DNA from: Dimargaris cristalligena | Taxonomy: Eukaryota | Reading direction: 5' to 3' | DNA: 57,147 nucleotides | Assembly (NCBI GenBank): GCA_003614675.1 | Contig: ML002252.1 | Span: 1 to 57,147, forward strand | Part shown: piece after piece, positions 4,387 through 27,300 of the stretch | Layout of the letters: each line of letters opens with the position of its first letter | Position numbering within the stretch: position 1 is the stretch's first letter | The notes under the pieces: model-generated | What the model was told of the DNA's origin: nothing | Databases searched by the model: none | The model's input: the letters and a program-made list of their open reading frames with translations, nothing else | Translations under genes and position numbers: made by a program

Positions 4387-6097
4387 TTCTCCTCTACCTT
4401 GAATGAAATTTGACCTGATTAAACCTATTTCTTCTCTCTCTCTCTCTCTCTCTCTCTGCCTTCCACACATTACTGGTTGGTCCACCAGCACCCAGGTGAT
4501 ATTTGGGCTAGCCCTATAAAATTTATCCAATCATCTTTGCACCCCTCTACACCGTACTTCTTTGATTATTCCTCCAGGCATACCCATCAGATACATTCCT
4601 CCTCCTGTGTATTGCCCGTCCATTCGCTTAACCCTTCCATTATTATTGAGCTCGTTCTATTTTATTTCATTTGATTACATCTTGTTTTGTTTTCCATCTC
4701 ATTATTTTCCATGGGGCCTCACTGGGTTCCTACCCGTTTACTGTGTCCGTTTGTCCGTATGTTTAAATATCCCAATATAATCCCGAGTGGCGTACATAAA
4801 TACTTTTCGTTACCCCCACCGTATGGCTATTTATGGAGAAACTGGTCAGATACTTGTTTATTTTTAGATGCCGATTAAAAGTGGATGTGTTGGGGGTGAT
4901 CGCGATCTTCTTTTTTTATAATTTTTTATTTAATCGTTTAATCCTAGATGCCGTTGACTATGTTGGCATCTAATGCATTCGTCTATTTGAGCCGCTGCGG
5001 ACCATCCCTGGTCGGTATAAGGCCTGTTCGGGGGGTTCGAATAGCACACGTCCTTGAACCTTCGGCGCATTAAAGCCCAGTGACTAGATTAAAATATCGC
5101 CCCTAAACATAGGCAAAAAAGGAGGACCTGGGCACTGTAAGGATTTAATATTGGGTAGAATCAGGAATAATATGTTATGCTTAGAATAATACAACATGGG
5201 GGGGAGGAATCACGCTGCAGCTTTGGGGGACCCTGGGGGTGATTAATTTGCCTCCCTGCGGCGGTATTCGACTTTCGTAACGAAGGCCCAGACCAACAGT
5301 GAGGGGTGTTGGTGTATAGGCGAGGAAATGGTCTCGCTTCTTGTTTAACCTACAGGGACATGTCAAGCCGACTGTTGCCTGGTACCCTAAACAATCCGCC
5401 GCTGCCACCTTGCAGGTCGTTATGGACACTCCGCGACTCCGATGCCCTGGCGACATGGGCGTTTTTGGCGGTGTTTAATGATATTTTTTGAATCGGCAAT
5501 GGTGTGTGTAACTCTATTTTTCCCCTATGATGTAGTAGTGTCTGTTTCTCTCTAAAAGGATTGGCCGTACTGCGGTACCAAGGAGGCGCGCGAGTTGCTT
5601 CCAGCACCCCCTTTCTTTGGGTTGCTTATTCTCCGTTCCCACAGGCCACTTGTGCAATTTGGCAAGTTCTGATTGGCTGGGCCGGGTAAGATCACCTGCC
5701 ACTCAGAAACGGCCACGTAAAACCGTAGAGAATCCAACACTATGAGTGTGAGGGGATATGGAATCTAGGGGATAATAATTTAATAGCCGTCTACGCCTAT
5801 ACTATATATTACACAGTACACTGTTATTGTAATATATCTTCTACTGAGGGAGTGGCTTCAGAACAACTATTATATTTCCCCCGACCTTGGCACGGCCCTA
5901 TATAAGCCTTGTCCAAGTCGCGCCCGCGTTCGTTGATTTATGCATGTCTACATTTTACGGCCGTTTGTCTTGTGTGCTTAGTATACCATTTTACCGACTT
6001 TCTTAATTAATTCTCTTGGTTTGGCTTGGCGAGTCCTTCCTTCTGCTTCTCCCTTAACTCCCCTCCGCGCTTTCCCACTGCCTTCTCTCCGCCTCCC

Positions 6098-7575
6098 ATG
6101 TCTGACCCCATGCGACAAGCCGCAGCCTCCACTTCGCCAACCGCCGAAGCGGAACCCCCCAGCGGTTCTGGCGGGACTGAGCCGTCGTCCAACTGGTGGT
6201 ACACCACCGACTTGACCGCCTCTTCGTCCATGGACACCTCGAGCTTGACCAACCCGTCTTTGAGCGATAAGGCCGCCCTGGACCTGCTGTTGTATTCGTT
6301 CCTTAGGGAGTCCGGGCTGAATGCCTCCAACGATTCCGCAGGGGAGTCGTCAGCGGCCGCAGCAACGGCCCCCGAGCAGGCACCCACCAGCCCCTCTTCG
6401 GCTCTACCGCTGCTGCGGCCTCGCCTGTCCACCCACTCCAGCCAGCCGACCTCACCCGAGACTGGCGCAGCGGGAGCGGCCCCGTCACGGAAACGCACCG
6501 TCGCCGAGCGCGAGGAGTCCGTCTGCGAGTCCGTCGAGGGGAGTAGTAGCCCGGCGTCGTCGGTCATGACCACCGCCGTGGAATCCCCGGCTTCCCAAGG
6601 TCCCCCCGCCCCCAAACGCTCCCGCAAGGCGCTGAGCGAGGCGGAGGTACGCCAAAAGAAGCAGGAGCGCAGCCGGCGGAACCGCGATGCCGCCCAGCAG
6701 TCCCGCGAGAAGAAGAAGCAGTTCATCGCGGACTTGGAGGTCCAGAACGGCCAATTGCAAAGTGAAAATGGGGAGCTTCGGGCCCGCATGACGGACCTCG
6801 AAACCCAGAACCGGGCGCTATGGGAGCGGCTCGAGTCCCTTACCCAAGTCGTGCAGCAGCTTCACTCCCCCCTGGGAAGTGCGACGCTTGGTCCGATGGC
6901 CCAGGCGGGCGGCGTTGGCCTGGGTGCGTTGCCGGGTTTGCTGGGTGTTGGCTCGGAGGGCCTACTTGGCTTTGGAGGACAGGGGGGCATTCAGATTTCC
7001 TCGGCTGGTTTTGGCGAGTCGGCAGTACTCGACCAGTTGGGCTCCGTGCTTTGGCCGGGGCTCAATTCTCGGCAGCAGAGACCAGTCCAGGGGCTGTCCA
7101 TCCCTCTCCCTCCCCAAGTCCTAGTTCCCCTCCAGTCAGCATCAAGCCCGAACCCGCTTCACCCCATGTTCAACCTAATCCCCACCTCCACCACCATACC
7201 AACGACGACCAGCTCCGGTCAAGTGGCACACCCTTCGACGGCGTCCCCCATATGGACGACGCTGAACTCGGTCAGTTCCTGGACGCCCTTCTCACTGCCT
7301 ACCCAGCCGCTACCGCCGACCCTGCTGGCGCTCTGGTCAGCCTACTATGCCCATCTCACTGCTCCACCCCTCAGTCCCAGCGGTCCAAACATAACATCCC
7401 CTCCCCAACAACCACTGGCGGACAGGGTACTCCAGACCTGGGCCACCCTTCGCCTCTCAGTCTACTGGATTGTTTGCCGTCTCCGGCAGTACTCCCTCCG
7501 TCTCCAGCCTTTGCTCAAATGTACCCAAAGCTGGAAACCATCGCAGCGCCGCCGGCTATTGCACTTCCTCAGTAA
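6098..7575 (+). CDS. HAC1: HAC1/XBP1-like bZIP factor, predicted IRE1-spliced isoform join(6098-7022,7073-7575), 475 aa
   Basis: Removing 7023-7072 gives ...GESA-AETSPGAVHP... and enters the open frame ending at 7575. The new tail has IKPE and the acidic/hydrophobic segment MDDAELGQFLDALL. Confidence 0.75.
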
Positions 7576-7876
7576 GGCCCTCCAGTCGCCCAATCAGTCC
7601 GTTCGCAAGCAGGGCCTGTCGCTGCTAGCACTTCCCGCTGTTTCTCGCACTACTACTTCTATTACTACTTCTTCTTCTTTAGCTCCCGGTGCTTCGTTGC
7701 CCAATCCAGTGTCTACTCCGACTCCAACCTCTTTGCCTGTTTCGCTTGGGATGTCATCACTCCCGTCCATTAACTCCTCCGGAGAATTAGATGGGTGGTG
7801 GATGAATAACACCTGGGCTCTCCGCCGCGAAGACGCCTTTCGGCTGAGCCCCAAGCCCGTCGCCCTAACCTACTAG
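6098..7876 (+). CDS. HAC1: HAC1/XBP1-like bZIP transcription factor, unspliced isoform (592 aa from ATG 6098)
   Basis: bZIP basic region QERSRRNRDAAQQSREKKK plus leucine zipper, resembling Hac1 RNRxAAxxSREKK. It is followed by an IRE1-type intron. Confidence 0.85.
   Translation: MSDPMRQAAASTSPTAEAEPPSGSGGTEPSSNWWYTTDLTASSSMDTSSLTNPSLSDKAALDLLLYSFLRESGLNASNDSAGESSAAAATAPEQAPTSPSSALPLLRPRLSTHSSQPTSPETGAAGAAPSRKRTVAEREESVCESVEGSSSPASSVMTTAVESPASQGPPAPKRSRKALSEAEVRQKKQERSRRNRDAAQQSREKKKQFIADLEVQNGQLQSENGELRARMTDLETQNRALWERLESLTQVVQQLHSPLGSATLGPMAQAGGVGLGALPGLLGVGSEGLLGFGGQGGIQISSAGFGESAVLDQLGSVLWPGLNSRQQRPVQGLSIPLPPQVLVPLQSASSPNPLHPMFNLIPTSTTIPTTTSSGQVAHPSTASPIWTTLNSVSSWTPFSLPTQPLPPTLLALWSAYYAHLTAPPLSPSGPNITSPPQQPLADRVLQTWATLRLSVYWIVCRLRQYSLRLQPLLKCTQSWKPSQRRRLLHFLSKALQSPNQSVRKQGLSLLALPAVSRTTTSITTSSSLAPGASLPNPVSTPTPTSLPVSLGMSSLPSINSSGELDGWWMNNTWALRREDAFRLSPKPVALTY
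7023..7072 (+). other. Unconventional (IRE1-cleaved) 50-nt intron
   Basis: Stem-loops CGAGT-[CGG|CAGT]-ACTCG and TTCT-[CGG|CAGC]-AGAG both have 7-nt CNG|CNGN loops. Flanking exon pairing 7003-7010/7080-7087. Length mod 3 = 2. Confidence 0.8.
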
Positions 7877-10800
7877 GAAGAGCCGGACACCCTAATTAGC
7901 TTTAATTCAGTCGACTACCATTTAAAATCATCTTTTCGGCTTTTAGTACCACTATGTAACAACAAAACCCTCCAATTTTTTTTACATTTTCCATTACCAT
8001 AATGACATTCGCCTCCTCTCTTAACGTCCATACTACTACTCCTCTATTTATAATACCGCCCACACAATAAACGTCCAACGAATTAATGAAGTACGGCCTC
8101 ACTCGGCGGGAATGTATTAATAAGTCCCGTGCCACAGTAATTTAAGGCCCAGTGTAATTTTAGATAGACTTGGAGTTAGGGCTGGGGCTGCCATGCTAAT
8201 GTATTGAACTAATCTATCTCGGCAATGTCCACGCTTCGATGCAGATAACGATGTGCACTCGGGTTTAGTTGGGTCAAATTCACCAAGTGGTCGTTAATGG
8301 AGTTGGTATAGGCACCTTATCTACCCCCCTCTCCGAACTAAAGAAAATCACATCTGTGACTTCTTTGAAGAGGGGGATATACCACTATTGTTTTGGTGAG
8401 GCCATCAACAGTACTCCCAAGGGATTTGCCATAAGTCATCAAAACAAAAATTGCAACAGGGAGGAGATGGCCAGCGGGATGATCATGGTGCCTTTTTTTT
8501 CGTTCAAAGCACGCCTCCCGTCATTGGGGATTTTCACCGAATGCCATCGCCCGATGACGCTTTCCTTCGGCCCCGCCGGCACTGGACCCGAATCTTCAGG
8601 GTTCCCTTTTTCACTACAGCAGGCTGACTGCTTAGGTGACTTGGGGATGGCCCCCTCTGCTTGGCGGTCCCAATCCTTCGTATTATTCGTGCTGCTCTCG
8701 GGCCTTCCTCAGTCAGTATGAGGGAGCCAAGACAAAAAGAGCAATAATATATCTATAGCTATATATATATATATATATATATGGAGGCTGCGCAATACAT
8801 TAAATAATGCTAGGGTCCATTGTTATTTTGGTATGTTTCGCTGGGAACTATATCCATCGGTGCCTCTTAAAAATAATAAAACTTATACGAGTGAGGCTAT
8901 ATTCCACTGCTCCACCAGGCCTATTGTATAGCGGCGAGAGTGGCTTCCTCGGTCGAGTCCTTCTAAATAGGACGAGCCAGGGGAGGATGCAGTCGGTTAT
9001 TGGCTGTAAGCCTTGGAAACACCAAAGTAGATGTGGTTGTATAGAGATGGAGTGCGTGCACCTATTTCCGACTCGGTTTTTCATAGTTAATATGTCCCTT
9101 TTACTCCCGCAGCCCCACCCTGATTGTACTCGGCGCTTCTATGGGTCCGTTTTCACTTCACTTCCCTCCAATGAAGTCTGCCGAATGCACTGGCTGATCC
9201 ATAACGATAGATAGGCAGCAGGCCCCTCTCGACACGACACGCGGGATACAGCCCTGCCGTTCTTCGGCCACTTGACCGGGTCATTGGGACCAACCGTATC
9301 AGCATCATCCGCCAAGACCCATATAGCCAAACATAATATCCATAGTAGTCATCATAACCATAATCGTAGATTCAAAGATGGTCCTCTCTTCCTCCCTCCC
9401 CTCGCCTCTCCTTCCCCGACGCGTCGATTCATTCACGTTTCCAAGACAAACGACGTGTGTGTGTGTATCGCCCACCCCTTTCCCAGCTAGGAATAATCCA
9501 CTACTCCCCCTCCATGTTGATAATGGGTTCCGCGGTTGGCCCAATTACCCTGCATCTTCCATTCCGCCCATTGTAACCATCGTGTGCTATATGCTATTAG
9601 TGGTGCCGCCGGGTCAGAAGGTGGTGGTGGTACCTTCTCTAGACACCACTGTGTATTGTTATTGCACCGGCTTAATCAGTCGGTTTAAGGGTCGGGAAAG
9701 AGAACGCCAAGTGGGCGGAGGTGAAGATGTAGAAGAAGAAGAAGGTGGAGGGTAAGTAAGAGTTGGCGGAGGGGGGGGCGGTTCAGCCCAGGGGCACACA
9801 CCACGGGTCCCCGATTCAGTCCCGCCACGGGATCCAAGTGTGGCTGGCCTGCATATCCACTCGGACGATGGCTCAAAAGAGAGAGAGAGAGAGAGAGAGA
9901 GTCCATGCCTACTCAAGTTGGCCCCCCACTCCCTCCCAGCAAAAAAAAATAGGGAGGAGGAGGAGGGGGAGGAAATAGAGTATGGCTATACCTCCCTCCC
10001 CCCCTTCCCCACTCGATGAGATTCCGAAATAATAATAATAATAATAGCGCACTGGTCACCCAATCTAGGTCTACTATCTACTACTCGGTGTGAGCGCGCT
10101 GGGTCCCACCACTGCGGGCGGCGGTGGTATAGGCGGTGACTTGGTTACTCGACAGGGCAGTGCAGTATTATTTTGACTGAAGAGCACACTTTCGGCACAT
10201 TTATTAGCTTCGCTAAATCAAGGACATGCCGCAAATTACTCGAGCCACCATGTATAGTCTTAGCCAAACCCGGTCTCTGGGTATAGGGAGATGGGGGAGC
10301 AACTGGGCAATCAATTGTACGCTAAAATGCATTTCAGAATGGGGGGAGGTACTTAATAAACCGCTAGGCTGCCGAAACGGCCCACGTTTTATTGATGAGG
10401 AATTAGGGGTGGGTAGTGAGGGGGGGAGATAATGATGGAGTAGGGGCTGTGTCACGGCGACTAAGCTTGTTAGACTCTCGGGTAACAACTCCCGGTAAAT
10501 AAGCAACGTACTAGAGGTACATATAATAGGGCCGGGTAAGACGAATGAATGGATATGGGTATGAATAAGACATAAAACTAAAAGTACGCTTAAAAATGAA
10601 CGGCAGGCGATGTGGACGGGCCCTATAGAAAAAATAGACGTGGTAGTGACTCCAGGGTACTAATCAGTGGCTATCGTAAAAGGGGTGTAGCCCACACGTG
10701 CGCTATTGTGGGGAGGAAGAGAAAGGTGGGAGGAGGTAATGCCAATGGAGGATTTTGTTGCAATGTATCCTAGTTAAGCGGATAGGAATTCAAGTCTCGA

Positions 10801-24337: not shown

Positions 24338-27300
24338 CTATTTGGGTCGCTGACTCTCTCTAAGACCAGGCTGACCGACCATTTGCTTACGCACCACCAA
24401 GAACTCCGGTTCACTTTTTAGCGGCGTGCCCGCCACCACGACGTCCTCCGGTTCGGATTCACTCTGCGATATAATGCCGTGGTTACGGGCTTCCGCCTCG
24501 TCGTCCTCCACCTCCCGGCGTTCCACCCGCACGGGACGTTCGGTGGCCTGGGCCTCCGTCACCTCCACCATATCGTCCAGCACGGACGAGGTCGGTTCCT
24601 CCCCCTCCGCCCACCGGTGCCTGGTGGTAGGCAGCGGGCGGCTTATTTCGGCAATCGGTTGGGGGGCCATGGTTGCCGCAGCCGAGATCACTTCAATCGA
24701 CGAATCACCATCCCCCGGGACGAGTGTATCCAAGGGACTATTATTGCCCAAATAAGTGGACCCCAACGAACCGGTGTGGCAGTGGGAGTCCGGAACCGAT
24801 ACTGATGCGATCGATCGCCGGCTAATAATGTGCTCGTAGGCCGAGTCATCATCCTCGTCACTTCCCTCCTCATCCAGGACCTGTTCTCGGGACCTATCCG
24901 ACTCCAACTCATCTGCCATACTGTCGTCATCGTAGGGGTCCCCCCCACTATCGCTAGCGTCGTCCCCATACAGATAATCGGGCGCGCGATCGGCTATTTC
25001 AAAGACCGGCGTACCTAACCCACGATTGGTGAACTCGGTCAGTTGCTCCCGGAGATCCTCGAATTCGGCTATATTACGTACGAAAAAGCCAAGCATCATA
25101 CAGGGATCCAAGCGGTCGAGGGAAATCTTGAAAGGCGTTGAGCAATGGAAAGACGGGGTATCAAGTGTGCTGGGCAGTTGGTCAGCGGGGTCGAGTTGGG
25201 GGCTAGTTCGTGTGAAATGGGGGTCGAGGAAAATGAACCCATTATCCTCAAAGCCCACAAAATAGGCGGCTGATCCCGGTTTGCCTCCGGCAATGCCCAC
25301 GAAATGGGATAGAGTAAAACAATACTTTAAAAAAGCGTAGTAAATCTTGTTGATGTTCTGAATACCAAGCCGGGTGGGCACCAAAATCAAAGTAGGGTGA
25401 ATCGACGGGGTATCGCCGTCCTCTTCTTCTCCGGAGCACTTGGATTGGGCGACAAGGGTGTCTTGGTATACCACCCCATCCGTGGCCAAGTAGGCTTGTA
25501 GGCCCATGGGACGAGTCCGGTTGATGAGGTCCCTGATAAAATAGTTGGCCAAAAAGGGGGGGGGGGTGAGAGATTAGGGGAAACAGAGGTCGTGAGTTGA
25601 AAATTGGGGCCGTCGAGGAAGAGGGGAGCCAGGGGGGATCACAGGGCGACCTTTTGGGCTGGGCTTCCAATTTTTTTTTAAAAAAAACCCCTACGAAAAT
25701 CACTAGGTAGTATCAACACCACCTAACCTACCTGAGTACATGGCAGGCCATGTGGGGGCCAAACCAATTTCCGACGGCATTATCAAACTCCGCACCCTTC
25801 TGGGCTAGGTTGTGGATCGAGAGGGGGGAAGATGGACCGGGCAAGTCCACAAATAATTTGAGGATCTACCCAGTGGAATGAGTGGACGAATGTGTTTAAA
25901 TAAAACTGTAAAAAAACGTTAGTTCCGAACAGCCTTAAGAATGTTAAAAGGAGACAGCATGTCGAAACGACAACTCCCTATAAATATTTCAAAAATATGT
26001 ATATGAATATAAAACCCCTTACAAATCGACCCCAATTGTCCAGCAACATTGGATTTTATATAAATTATTGGCCTAAATTCCCCAGTATTACTCCTTCTAA
26101 GGTTATAAACAGTACTTACCTGGCGATAAGTGCGATAAACACTCTGGTCTTCGTCAGTGGTTCGCCAGTCACGGCCCAAAAGATAGACCACATAGGCCTG
26201 GGCCACCAAAGACTGGGCCGACCTGAGCATGCATCCCCAGCCGGCATCGGTGGTCAGGGTCGAATTCGGTAGCGCCGGAAACTGCGATCGGTAGGTGCAC
26301 CAAATACGGGACTCGAAGTCGTGTAAAAAGGCGGCGGGGTATGACGCCGATGCCCCAGACAACCCCGCCAAGGGGTTGGTGATAGAGCCAATAAGCGACG
26401 AGGCATAGGGGATTTCCTTTGGAGTCGAGGTGCCGAGGGCCATCGCCCGCTGGAGGGGGGGCTTCGGGTCTGGTAATGGGGAGGAATCCCCGGGAGTATG
26501 TGGGGTAGCAGGAGGGGCAGCAGGAGGGGATGCGGATAACCTCGGGCTCGATTCATAGACACCTTCGGGAGCCGACGGGGGCGATTTACCCTGCGGGGAA
26601 GTGTCGGGATTTTCCCGGTAATACTTATGTCCAAGTATCCACAGCTCTAGGTAAATAGGCGACCCGATTGGAGGTTCAAATAGGAGGTTGCAATGGGAGT
26701 GTGGCGAGTTAACGTGTGGCATTAATAAGCAGCCTGGAAGTAGGGCCAGTGGTTGTATATTCAACTAGGTCCGTCACAGCCGAGGTGTTCGACTAAATAA
26801 ACGGTTGGACTCACGTTCTCCGATAAGGGGGAGGGGGGGGTCACCTTGTTTGGTGGCAAAAATCGACTCAACTAGGCAAATTAGACATGGCCGGAGAAAA
26901 AAAGGAAGGAGACGTACCGTTAGAGAAAGGGCCGGCCGGGCCCAGAAACCCCCATTGTTCCACTGCATTGGACAGTGCGTGAAACCAGCTTCGGACATTG
27001 GTGGTTACGGCTGTCGAGAGACTCTGGGCGGCTGGGGTCGGCAGCGCCTGGTCGGGACTGCCCGCTGTTAAGTAAACCACCGGAGTAAAAGGGTGTATAG
27101 AAGGGAGCGGGAGGCTAGAAAAAGGTGAGCAGCCCGTCTATTCGTTGCGAAAGCCCGGAACTATTTTTCTTTAACTGTCCACTGCTTCGATATATATATA
27201 TAACGGAGCCAACCACCACCATTCAACACTAGGATTCAAGAAAGTGGCCTGCCGAAGCAATCAGGTTTAGCAGTCCTCCCAGTGGTAATGAAGGGGTCGG

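Follow-up and report, generated by a model that had tools for sequence, protein, structure and literature searches.

Fungi in general are presumed to possess IRE1 as well as Trl1 or RtcB as RNA ligase, and the intron structures of Hac1/Xbp1 have reportedly been surveyed by Hooks and Griffiths-Jones in 2011. The intron of Ustilago maydis cib1 is 65 nt long. Introns of HAC1 as a whole range from 19 to 848 nt (PMC6222058). The consensus given for the loops is CNG'CNGN (PMC8071499), and that for the junctions is C(C/U)G CAGC (PMC4687415). Metazoan XBP1 has a 26-nt intron with two 7-mer loops of this junction type, and forms a bifurcated stem-loop composed of a central exon-exon stem (S1) and two arms (S2 and S3). 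Removal of the intron causes a +2 shift and provides a new C-terminus, and the long unspliced ORF overlaps the spliced one. After cutting, the exon stem of XBP1 is predicted to become longer, with the restored junction no longer in a 7-mer loop (PMC4687415).

In filamentous ascomycetes, the hacA/hac1 genes have introns of 20–23 nt, twin stem-loops with CNG'CNGN loops and two alternative C-termini; a potential 526-aa Hac1u against a 417-aa Hac1 is described for V. dahliae (PMC8071499), and 5'UTR truncation or uORFs reportedly regulate these genes. A regulatory role has been proposed for the unspliced mRNA of U. maydis cib1 and its deduced protein (PMC8071499). Saccharomyces cerevisiae HAC1, with a 252-nt intron, a 5'UTR-intron translational block and a 3'UTR bipartite element, is a bZIP gene with an IRE1-type junction, in which splicing supplies the protein with a new activation segment at the C-terminus (PMC11077094). 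An intron of intermediate length is found in Cryptococcus neoformans HXL1, for which IRE1-dependent splicing of 56 nt was shown experimentally (PMC3154848). For Rhizopus arrhizus, a likely HAC1 is described as "difficult to detect", with a non-canonical intron that the annotation lacked and RNA-seq revealed (PMC10946435). In the literature searched, neither HAC1 nor the unfolded protein response was the subject of any paper on Kickxellomycota or Zoopagomycota.

Host gene, reading frames and fold of the element

The window analyzed here is a stretch of 57,147 nt (contig ML002252.1, forward strand) of Dimargaris cristalligena (Kickxellomycota, Dimargaritales), a species of a genus parasitic on moulds. 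An ORF in this window is very probably a Hac1/Xbp1-like gene with a 50-nt IRE1-type intron, whose excision in this species is predicted by comparison with relatives. The features are listed in Table 1. The initial annotation had recognized a bZIP gene as the host of the intron, and the Pfam matches to two bZIP families, both scoring above the curated cut-offs, bear this out. When the Dimargaritales orthologues are aligned, the basic region (ERSRRNRDAAQ.SRE) proves to be invariant, and the N-terminus can be aligned with the Dispira orthologues, M1 and S2 being invariant. The intron would start at codon 309, which is 3' of the leucine zipper, and the relatives found by profile are arranged likewise.

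Table 1. Positions of the gene, the predicted intron and the structural elements in the window.
Feature	Position	Strand	Basis or description
Unspliced ORF (Hac1u-type product)	6098–7876	+	Single open frame from ATG 6098; 592 aa and stop
bZIP domain	6653–6805	+	Residues 186–236; Pfam bZIP_2 (E 5e-09) and bZIP_1 (E 3.1e-08)
Basal exon-exon stem, 5' strand	6997–7010	+	Pairs with 7080–7093; C7002/C7088 mismatch
5' cleavage hairpin	7012–7035	+	Stem 7015–7019/7027–7031 and extension; loop 7020–7026; predicted cut 7022/7023
Predicted IRE1-excised intron	7023–7072	+	50 nt (2 mod 3); starts with CA and ends with GG; no GT-AG borders
Intron-internal hairpin	7036–7066	+	11 bp; loop 7047–7055; pair probabilities 0.85–1.0
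3' cleavage hairpin	7067–7079	+	Stem UCU/AGA; loop CGGCAGC 7070–7076; predicted cut 7072/7073
Exon 2 in spliced frame	7073–7575	+	166-codon tail, Ser/Pro-rich, then acidic-hydrophobic MDDAELGQFLDALL; stop 7573–7575
Basal exon-exon stem, 3' strand	7080–7093	+	Same basis as 6997–7010
WWMNN motif, unspliced-frame tail	7796–7810	+	WWM.N about 22–27 residues before the stop in three Dimargaritales genera

The frame switch claimed initially was reproduced: removal of 7023–7072 moves the frame of ATG 6098 into one that is open for 503 nt from 7073, and the computed spliced product has 475 aa against 592 aa for the unspliced one. Because the borders of the intron are CGG|CAG repeats, the product is identical for any shift of the cuts within the repeat. 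From 7073, the three frames are open for 267, 166 and 16 codons. Both of the longer lengths were attained together in a fraction of 5e-05 of 20000 composition shuffles, while the spliced frame alone was open by chance in 1.6% of the shuffles. As a general property of the window, long spurious ORFs are frequent in its C-rich sequence.

Both cleavage loops conform to CNG|CNGN, and a cut is expected directly 3' of the G in position 3 of each loop. Loop 1 (CGGCAGT, stem CGAGT/ACTCG) and loop 2 (stem TTCT/AGAG, pairing as U-G, U-A, C-G and U-A) are present as first described. The basal stem had been given as GGCTGGTT/GACCAGTC at 7003–7010/7080–7087; these coordinates are right, but G7080 had been assigned to both the basal stem and hairpin 2, two pairings that exclude each other, and the fourth pair of the 3' cleavage hairpin, a U-G, competes with the basal stem. 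The internal stem, given as GGGCTCCG/CGGGGCTC at 7039–7046/7056–7063, is present but was drawn too short, since it extends to 11 bp at 7036–7046/7056–7066.

When 6990–7100 was folded, a check that the initial annotation had proposed, 3 of 200 shuffles folded equally well or better (z = −2.46), and the canonical register of hairpin 2 was disfavoured. The basal stem is found in both the MFE and centroid folds (pair probabilities 0.54–1.0 for 7003–7010), and the stem of the 5' cleavage hairpin, which gains about three more pairs (7012–7014/7033–7035), has probabilities of 0.72–0.75. Hairpin 2 is weak, with a probability of 0.11–0.15 for the canonical register versus 0.44–0.46 for a register shifted by one, and forcing both canonical loops costs 3.2 kcal/mol (−45.1 versus −48.3 for the MFE). 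A search of Rfam with 5900–8100 at E up to 10 gave no relevant family, and the three matches to snoRNA/lncRNA models were at chance level.

Conservation of the element and comparison with known systems

The protein encoded in the window has an overall identity of 29–37% to the orthologues of Dispira (two species), Tieghemiomyces and Dimargaris verticillata, and there is little else in common beyond the bZIP domain and two peptide blocks. These invariant blocks, F.(E/K)(S/T)AVL and SRQQ.P, exactly overlie the two hairpins: the 5' hairpin encodes ESAVLD and the 3' hairpin encodes SRQQ.P, with ES of the window replaced by KT in Tieghemiomyces and KS in D. verticillata while AVL is retained. From the read-through protein models of these relatives, introns of 53 nt (Dispira simplex and D. 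parvispora), 41 nt (Tieghemiomyces parasiticus) and 44 nt (D. verticillata) are predicted, and the motif pair is found also in Coemansia, Basidiobolus and Conidiobolus. The alignment of orthologues, which had been named as a check, thus finds the peptide blocks over both loops conserved at the protein level, and the structure is matched in environmental loci by the covariance model described below.

In 39 of 60 metagenome loci encoding relatives, one twin CNGCNGN hairpin was present on the sense strand, whereas four of the 60 antisense strands had such a pair. The loop spacing was 2 mod 3 in 38 of the 39 loci (17, 20, 23, 29, 44, 47, 59 and 62 nt, with seven loci at 44 nt). The 5' hairpin stem of the window is identical to that of three loci (L015, L020 and L037). 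A G at loop position 2, as in both loops of the window, was observed in none of the 39 loci, and the consensus leaves this position free. The 44-nt loci and one further locus (L012) adopt the same arrangement of basal stem, 5' hairpin, internal hairpin and 3' hairpin. In the basal stem of the 44-nt loci, five pairs have changed on both sides, and 94.8% of the cells are paired versus 30–44% when the partners are slid.

A covariance model (R1) was built from the seven environmental loci with 44-nt introns, the window being excluded. In the 114 kb searched, R1 had one full-length match in the window, at 6996–7100, with 46.7 bits and an E-value of 1.4e-10. The covariance-model alignment was used for comparing pairs, and MAFFT of all elements of the intermediate class misaligned the internal hairpin at an indel. 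The R1 alignment retains standard pairing in the window for 33 of 36 pairs, in 11 cases through compensatory changes, numbers which come from an alignment fitted to R1 and hence are biased toward the structure; with the same bias, the basal stem (6996–7010 with 7080–7094) has 13 standard pairs out of 15, six being changed on both sides relative to the 44-nt group, and all ten pairs of the internal hairpin are standard, four being changed on both sides and three on one side. The three-arm form claimed for the intron therefore recurs in relatives and is maintained by compensatory changes.

Excision of the homologous intron was observed in another fungus. In an environmental transcript contig (L028), precisely the 44 nt of the homologous intron are missing, the cuts lying at CNG|CNG, and the encoded protein passes from ...FGESAA to EIDSQLF. 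The interpretation of the window element as an IRE1-type intron is thus supported by the elements in 38 environmental HAC1-like loci, to which it is homologous in both sequence and structure, the match of R1 and the excision in L028, from which we infer splicing in D. cristalligena itself. Introns of 41–62 nt with a conserved internal hairpin can be regarded as a recognisable class between those of 17–29 nt and the long introns of yeast, as supported by the covariation and one spliced transcript.

Compared with the described systems, the element is like XBP1 in the two 7-mer loops, whose junctions are of the C(C/U)G CAGC type, the exon-exon central stem, the +2 shift leading to a new C-terminus and the long unspliced ORF overlapping the spliced one. 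The lengthening of the exon stem after cutting is also shared: the computed spliced RNA of the window folds like the observed L028, with a longer exon stem and the restored junction in a 9-nt loop. Differences from XBP1 are a fourth helix within the intron, the intron length (50 versus 26 nt) and the G at loop position 2, and the unspliced tail has no clear counterpart of the HR2-like hydrophobic segment of XBP1. The hacA/hac1 class of ascomycetes corresponds to the environmental loci of 17–29 nt, and unlike the window element, their introns are too short to hold an internal hairpin.

With HXL1, the element shares an intermediate length, borders formed by stem-loops with CAG at their junctions, a divergent bZIP gene as host that BLAST detects with difficulty, and the lack of complementarity between 5'UTR and intron. 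The phylum is different, and splicing is shown there and predicted here. The initial annotation had spoken of an intermediate-length three-arm intron; length and arms were found as described, but an intermediate length is not new, since HXL1 has a 56-nt intron. Rhizopus arrhizus, belonging to another phylum, is similar in being early-diverging and in having an orthologue that is hard to detect and an intron overlooked in its annotation. Pairing of the presumptive 5'UTR (5910–6097) with the intron did not exceed chance, at −28.7 kcal/mol for the best duplex versus −30.7 ± 3.6 for shuffled UTRs, of which 71% paired at least as stably. Since the unspliced frame is long and open, a translation block of the yeast type is not indicated; the long open frame is paralleled by the proposal for the unspliced mRNA of cib1.

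Alternative explanations and public gene models

The prediction that standard gene callers would fail at this intron was confirmed by the public models, one of which is a 94-aa fragment and another of which hops between frames. The public D. cristalligena protein model differs by one residue over the mapped parts. When a 485-aa model (P0152) was mapped on the window, one exon ended at 7035 and the next began at 7125, the segment between them starting with GT (7036) and closing with AG (7123–7124). This GT...AG segment (7036–7124) is 89 nt, also 2 mod 3, and leads to the same downstream frame as IRE1 splicing. It could accordingly be supposed that ordinary spliceosomal introns shift the frame, as in this public model, and that the twin hairpins are incidental. 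We regard this as very unlikely, since P0152 requires two further "introns" (7375–7426 and 7622–7686), by which it hops to the unspliced frame and on again, and such hops are typical for an ab initio caller following coding potential in overlapping frames. The models of Tieghemiomyces conflict similarly, one (P0004) reading through and the other (P0005) jumping frame. Spliceosomal splicing also leaves unexplained the invariant peptide blocks, the covariance-model match and the excised homologous intron.

Another explanation takes the hairpins as by-products of the conserved peptides GFGESAVLD and SRQQRPV, with the mRNA uncut and the 592-aa read-through protein as the sole product. The peptide motifs are indeed conserved in all read-through models, and the unspliced frame, open for 267 codons, has a higher third-position GC in the overlap of frames (0.68 versus 0.57 in the spliced frame). 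This explanation appears extremely unlikely, however, because R1 matches the structure too, with the compensatory pairs including intron positions that are translated differently in each lineage, because the same element is excised in environmental relatives, and because a spacing of 2 mod 3 in 38 of 39 loci would not be imposed by a purely peptide constraint. The KT or KS found in place of ES with AVL kept, known at the protein level, is what a compensating stem would allow.

In a GC-rich gene, two functionless CNGCNGN hairpins might also arise by chance. Scanning of the window on both strands for 7-nt CNGCNGN loops closed by stems of 4 bp or more gave 16 hairpins; just two pairs had a spacing of 15–300 nt, the bZIP element and one at 26933/27039. 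To meet one twin hairpin within 57 kb is thus nothing rare, and spurious long ORFs are common in the window. The pair at 26933/27039 (106 nt apart) was taken as chance, being accompanied by no ORF of at least 120 aa and no match of R1. In contrast, a twin hairpin directly 3' of the bZIP zipper together with an independent covariance-model match is rare. Chance as an explanation for the bZIP element is scarcely credible, considering that R1 matches it alone in 114 kb, that it is located 3' of the zipper, that it is conserved in five Dimargaritales proteins, and that the antisense control gave far fewer pairs than the sense strands.

Proposed mechanism, protein tails and significance

In the proposed mechanism of IRE1-type splicing, the mRNA just 3' of the leucine zipper would form a four-helix junction composed of the basal stem, the two loop hairpins and the stable intron hairpin. 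Under ER stress, the RNase of IRE1 would cut after G7022 and G7072 and release the 50-nt intron, while the basal stem would keep the exons together and grow longer. The exons would then be sealed by tRNA ligase, for which Trl1, not RtcB, is expected in fungi (PMC10946435). The +2 shift would give the 166-codon tail, whose acidic-hydrophobic stretch is a likely activation domain, and an active 475-aa factor would replace the unspliced protein of 592 aa. The most likely role of the internal hairpin is to compact the longer intron, which would bring the cleavage loops as close as in introns of 20–26 nt. For D. cristalligena, we infer the IRE1 dependence, the regulation by stress and the roles of both protein tails in this scheme.

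BLASTP of the unspliced tail against relatives gave no significant similarity (E 0.56 for Dispira and 0.16 for Tieghemiomyces), and a marginal, suggestive match of its C-terminal 29 residues to D. verticillata was obtained (E 0.017). For the spliced tail, neither a significant BLASTP similarity nor a co-linear match was found in Tieghemiomyces and D. verticillata. The acidic-hydrophobic stretch of the spliced tail looks by eye like MSDGEVDSFIHALTGLL of the frame-shifted Tieghemiomyces model, but this candidate was rejected, as the best HSPs of BLASTP are elsewhere (E 0.015, N-terminal region).

The best 19-residue Kyte-Doolittle mean is 0.99 in the unspliced tail versus 1.03 in the spliced tail, and hydrophobic windows of 1.4–2.2 are found in relatives (Tieghemiomyces, Basidiobolus and Dispira simplex). 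Hydrophobic Trp-rich segments are present in Coemansia (LWTIFC.LWWIL), Basidiobolus (LVWWILIWIF) and Tieghemiomyces (VVLIPIWTVALTAYSLLLS), and the proteins of Coemansia and Basidiobolus have an aromatic-Pro-Pro-stop ending. A joint reading would be that Zoopagomycota and other early-diverging fungi translate the unspliced HAC1 mRNA into a protein whose tail acts like XBP1u or plant bZIP60u. The hydrophobic Trp-rich segment would guide the mRNA with its ribosome to the membrane of the ER, a conserved C-terminal motif (WWM.N or aromatic-Pro-Pro-stop) would stall the ribosome, and the internal hairpin, as a spacing adaptation, would maintain an XBP1-like spacing of the loops in introns of 41–62 nt. 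We consider this reading, including an ancestral origin of mRNA delivery, to be doubtful. If it is true, the ancestor of fungi and animals would already have delivered the mRNA to IRE1 co-translationally, and budding yeast would have lost this route.

The mechanism itself belongs to textbook knowledge, and what the internal hairpin, with its conservation, and the mis-annotation add to it is modest. The twin-hairpin scan combined with a small covariance model is reusable, and finds such introns where protein searches struggle. The present results correct the annotation of the master regulator of the unfolded protein response in Dimargaris, and extend the signals of IRE1-type splicing to Kickxellomycota and Zoopagomycota.

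Position and frames of the RNA element

A single long open frame of 592 codons contains a bZIP domain at residues 186-236 (Pfam bZIP_2, E 5e-09; bZIP_1, E 3.1e-08), and the twin-hairpin elements are located about 70 codons 3' of the zipper. The loops, the basal stem and the internal stem (7039-7046/7056-7063) were all found where the initial annotation had placed them, although its structure assigned G7080 to two pairs at once. Removal of the 50 nt between the predicted cleavage sites changes the frame, as had been proposed, and leads to a second open frame with a product of 475 aa. From 7073 onward, 267 codons are open in the unspliced frame, 166 in the spliced frame and 16 in the third frame, and the fraction of shuffles reaching the observed lengths was 0.0011 (unspliced), 0.0156 (spliced) and 5e-05 (both jointly). 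The gene has AT-rich flanks on both sides, with a TATATAAG box ~190 nt 5' of the ATG and, if transcribed, a candidate uORF. No 5'UTR-intron pairing beyond chance was found in the window gene.

Features of the window related to the candidate intron
Feature	Position	Strand	Basis
Unspliced open frame	ATG 6098, stop 7874-7876	+	sequence
Candidate intron, 50 nt	7023-7072	+	
Stop of spliced frame	7573-7575	+	
Hairpin 1 (predicted 5' cleavage), CGAGT-CGGCAGT-ACTCG	loop 7020-7026	+	sequence
Hairpin 2 (predicted 3' cleavage), TTCT-CGGCAGC-AGAG	loop 7070-7076	+	sequence
Basal stem (exon-exon)	7003-7010/7080-7087	+	sequence; ensemble pair probability 0.54-1.0
Internal hairpin, 11 bp	7036-7046/7056-7066	+	ensemble pair probability 0.85-1.0
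AT-rich flanks	5750-6000, 7880-8060		
TATATAAG box	~5901-5908		
Candidate uORF, ATG-initiated, short	from 5940		
Second CNGCNGN pair	26933-27045 (loops 26933/27039)		

RNAfold of 6990-7100 gave -48.3 kcal/mol (z = -2.46), with equally good folds in 3 of 200 shuffles. The basal stem, hairpin 1 (ensemble pair probability 0.72-0.75) and the 11-bp internal hairpin were well supported. Hairpin 2 was weak, with pair probabilities of 0.11-0.15 for the canonical register against 0.44-0.46 for a one-shifted register; a fold constrained to contain the two canonical loops is 3.2 kcal/mol less favourable. The fold computed for the spliced window RNA is like that of the RNA observed for the environmental HAC1-like locus L028: the exon-exon stem is longer and the restored junction lies in a 9-nt loop, not in a 7-mer hairpin. 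Peschek et al. (PMC4687415) report a like rearrangement of XBP1 after splicing, which there blocks re-cleavage.

On both strands, the window has 16 CNGCNGN 7-nt loops with a closing stem of at least 4 bp, and two loop pairs 15-300 nt apart. Because a second pair exists, the twin hairpin by itself is not decisive; position and conservation carry the decision. This second pair, 106 nt apart (1 mod 3) and with GC-rich stems, has no ORF of at least 120 aa over it and no covariance-model match, and was treated as chance.

Probable homologous introns in environmental loci

Searching metagenome contigs with the orthologue alignment yielded 60 loci, and exactly one sense-strand twin CNGCNGN hairpin was present in 39 (antisense control, 4/60). 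Loop spacings are 17 (8 loci), 20 (7), 23 (9), 29 (4), 44 (7), 47, 59, 62 and 121 nt, and all but the last (1 mod 3) of these 39 loci are 2 mod 3. Intron lengths fall into discrete classes (17, 20, 23 and 29 nt), each with its own characteristic stems. In the 21 loci that this simple scan missed, the contig may be truncated, the stems weaker or the intron longer.

In the seven 44-nt loci and in locus L012, the basal stem and the 5', internal and 3' hairpins form the four-helix junction of the window. Among the 44-nt loci, pairing holds in 94.8% of cells, compared with 30-44% when partners are slid, and both partners differ in five basal-stem pairs; the three remaining helices are near-invariant and therefore uninformative there. 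The covariance model R1, built from these seven loci without the window, gave a single match when both strands of the window were searched, at full length (6996-7100; 46.7 bits; E 1.4e-10, a rough value from a shortened calibration). In this model-fitted alignment, whose fit is biased towards the structure, 33 of 36 window pairs are standard: 14 are unchanged, 8 have one partner substituted and 11 have both (6 basal, 4 internal and 1 in hairpin 2).

Aligned with loci L016 and L037, L028 lacks exactly 44 columns between the two CTG|C motifs, and its translation runs ...FGESAA and then, in the other frame, EIDSQLF... An intron homologous to that of the window, and alike in architecture, is thus excised in nature, with cuts at the predicted bonds.

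These three transcript contigs start with a second copy of the exon 1 end and intron (L037:52-136, L016:13-100, L028:4-78), which runs to the 3' cleavage site ...CCCTG and is joined straight to what appears to be that gene's own 5' leader. Every such copy is identical to the downstream one in its contig, lineage-specific bases included. This looks like an RNA-level join at an IRE1-cut end rather than an old genomic duplication; the source could be an intermediate that was circular or had been re-ligated, or else template switching by reverse transcriptase. The R1 search found no second copy of the element in the window.

Relatives, public gene models and protein tails

A word-based search (8000 candidates scored) returned two Dispira proteins only at E <= 0.001, and a profile search of 1.84 billion representatives returned 1456 proteins at E <= 0.001, 62 at E <= 1e-10 and 3 at E <= 1e-30. 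The best 150 of the 1456 were inspected; relatives identified by name include Tieghemiomyces parasiticus, Dimargaris verticillata, Coemansia and Basidiobolus species, Conidiobolus coronatus, Endogone, Actinomortierella and chytrids. Five Dimargaritales proteins share 29-37% identity overall, and what is invariant in them outside the bZIP is F.(E/K)(S/T)AVL and SRQQ.P, the two translated hairpins. The 5' motif lies 3' of the bZIP domain in 21 of 156 proteins collected. Protein-level inference from read-through models gives loop spacings of 53 nt in Dispira, 41 nt in Tieghemiomyces, 44 nt in D. verticillata and Conidiobolus, and 47-59 nt in Basidiobolus and Coemansia.

A public 94-aa protein is identical to residues 157-250 and clusters with a 485-aa 'hypothetical protein' of D. 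cristalligena (Kickxellomycota, Dimargaritales). The latter model takes the second Met (6110) as its start, carries a single substitution relative to the window, Ile for Thr at residue 114 of the model, and exits the unspliced frame at 7035 via a GT...AG 'intron' of 89 nt (7036-7124). It then follows the spliced frame up to 7374, the unspliced frame at 7427-7621 and another phase at 7687-7770, so that three frame-hopping 'introns' (7036-7124, 7375-7426 and 7622-7686) are implied in the dual-coding region. Two Tieghemiomyces models conflict likewise, one reading through and the other jumping frame. Gene callers therefore miss the 50-nt intron, as had been anticipated.

Ser and Pro are abundant in the spliced tail, which also has an acidic-hydrophobic stretch, a composition that makes an activation domain plausible; BLASTP found no significant similarity to relatives. 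For the unspliced tail, BLASTP matches to Dispira (E 0.56) and Tieghemiomyces (E 0.16) were not significant, and its last 29 residues matched D. verticillata at E 0.017. A WWM.N motif occurs 22-27 residues from the stop in unspliced tails of three genera. GC3 is 0.76 upstream; in the overlap it is 0.68 for the unspliced and 0.57 for the spliced frame, which hints weakly at translation of the former. Trp-rich hydrophobic segments are clear in the unspliced tails of relatives (1.4-2.2) and weak in the window (0.99). Unspliced products of several Zoopagomycota orthologues, from Coemansia (P0028, P0120, P0130, P0133) and Basidiobolus (P0081, P0146) as well as P0007, end, 3' of such a segment, in aromatic-Pro-Pro-stop (LFYPP, LFSPP, SLWPP, LWPP, also DAQPP). 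A Pro-Pro ending could slow termination.

Comparison with known introns

The intron measures 26 nt in XBP1 and 23 nt in bZIP60 (PMC11077094). Among fungi, it has 20 nt in V. dahliae (PMC8071499), 19-848 nt across Saccharomycotina (PMC6222058) and, according to PMC3154848, 19-29 nt in several species and 56 nt in HXL1 of C. neoformans. A 2024 paper describes a probable HAC1 of R. arrhizus whose non-canonical intron is missing from the annotation (PMC10946435). Among the literature matches listed for HAC1 or UPR combined with Zoopagomycota, Kickxellomycotina or Dimargaris, no paper treated the two together. The window element has all testable sequence and structure features of the HAC1/XBP1 unconventional intron, and 7023-7072 is very probably an IRE1-type intron with these borders. 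The element is real and very probably a UPR splice switch, ordinary in kind, in an under-studied fungal lineage, and its modest additions are a conserved internal hairpin and a 41-62-nt intron class.
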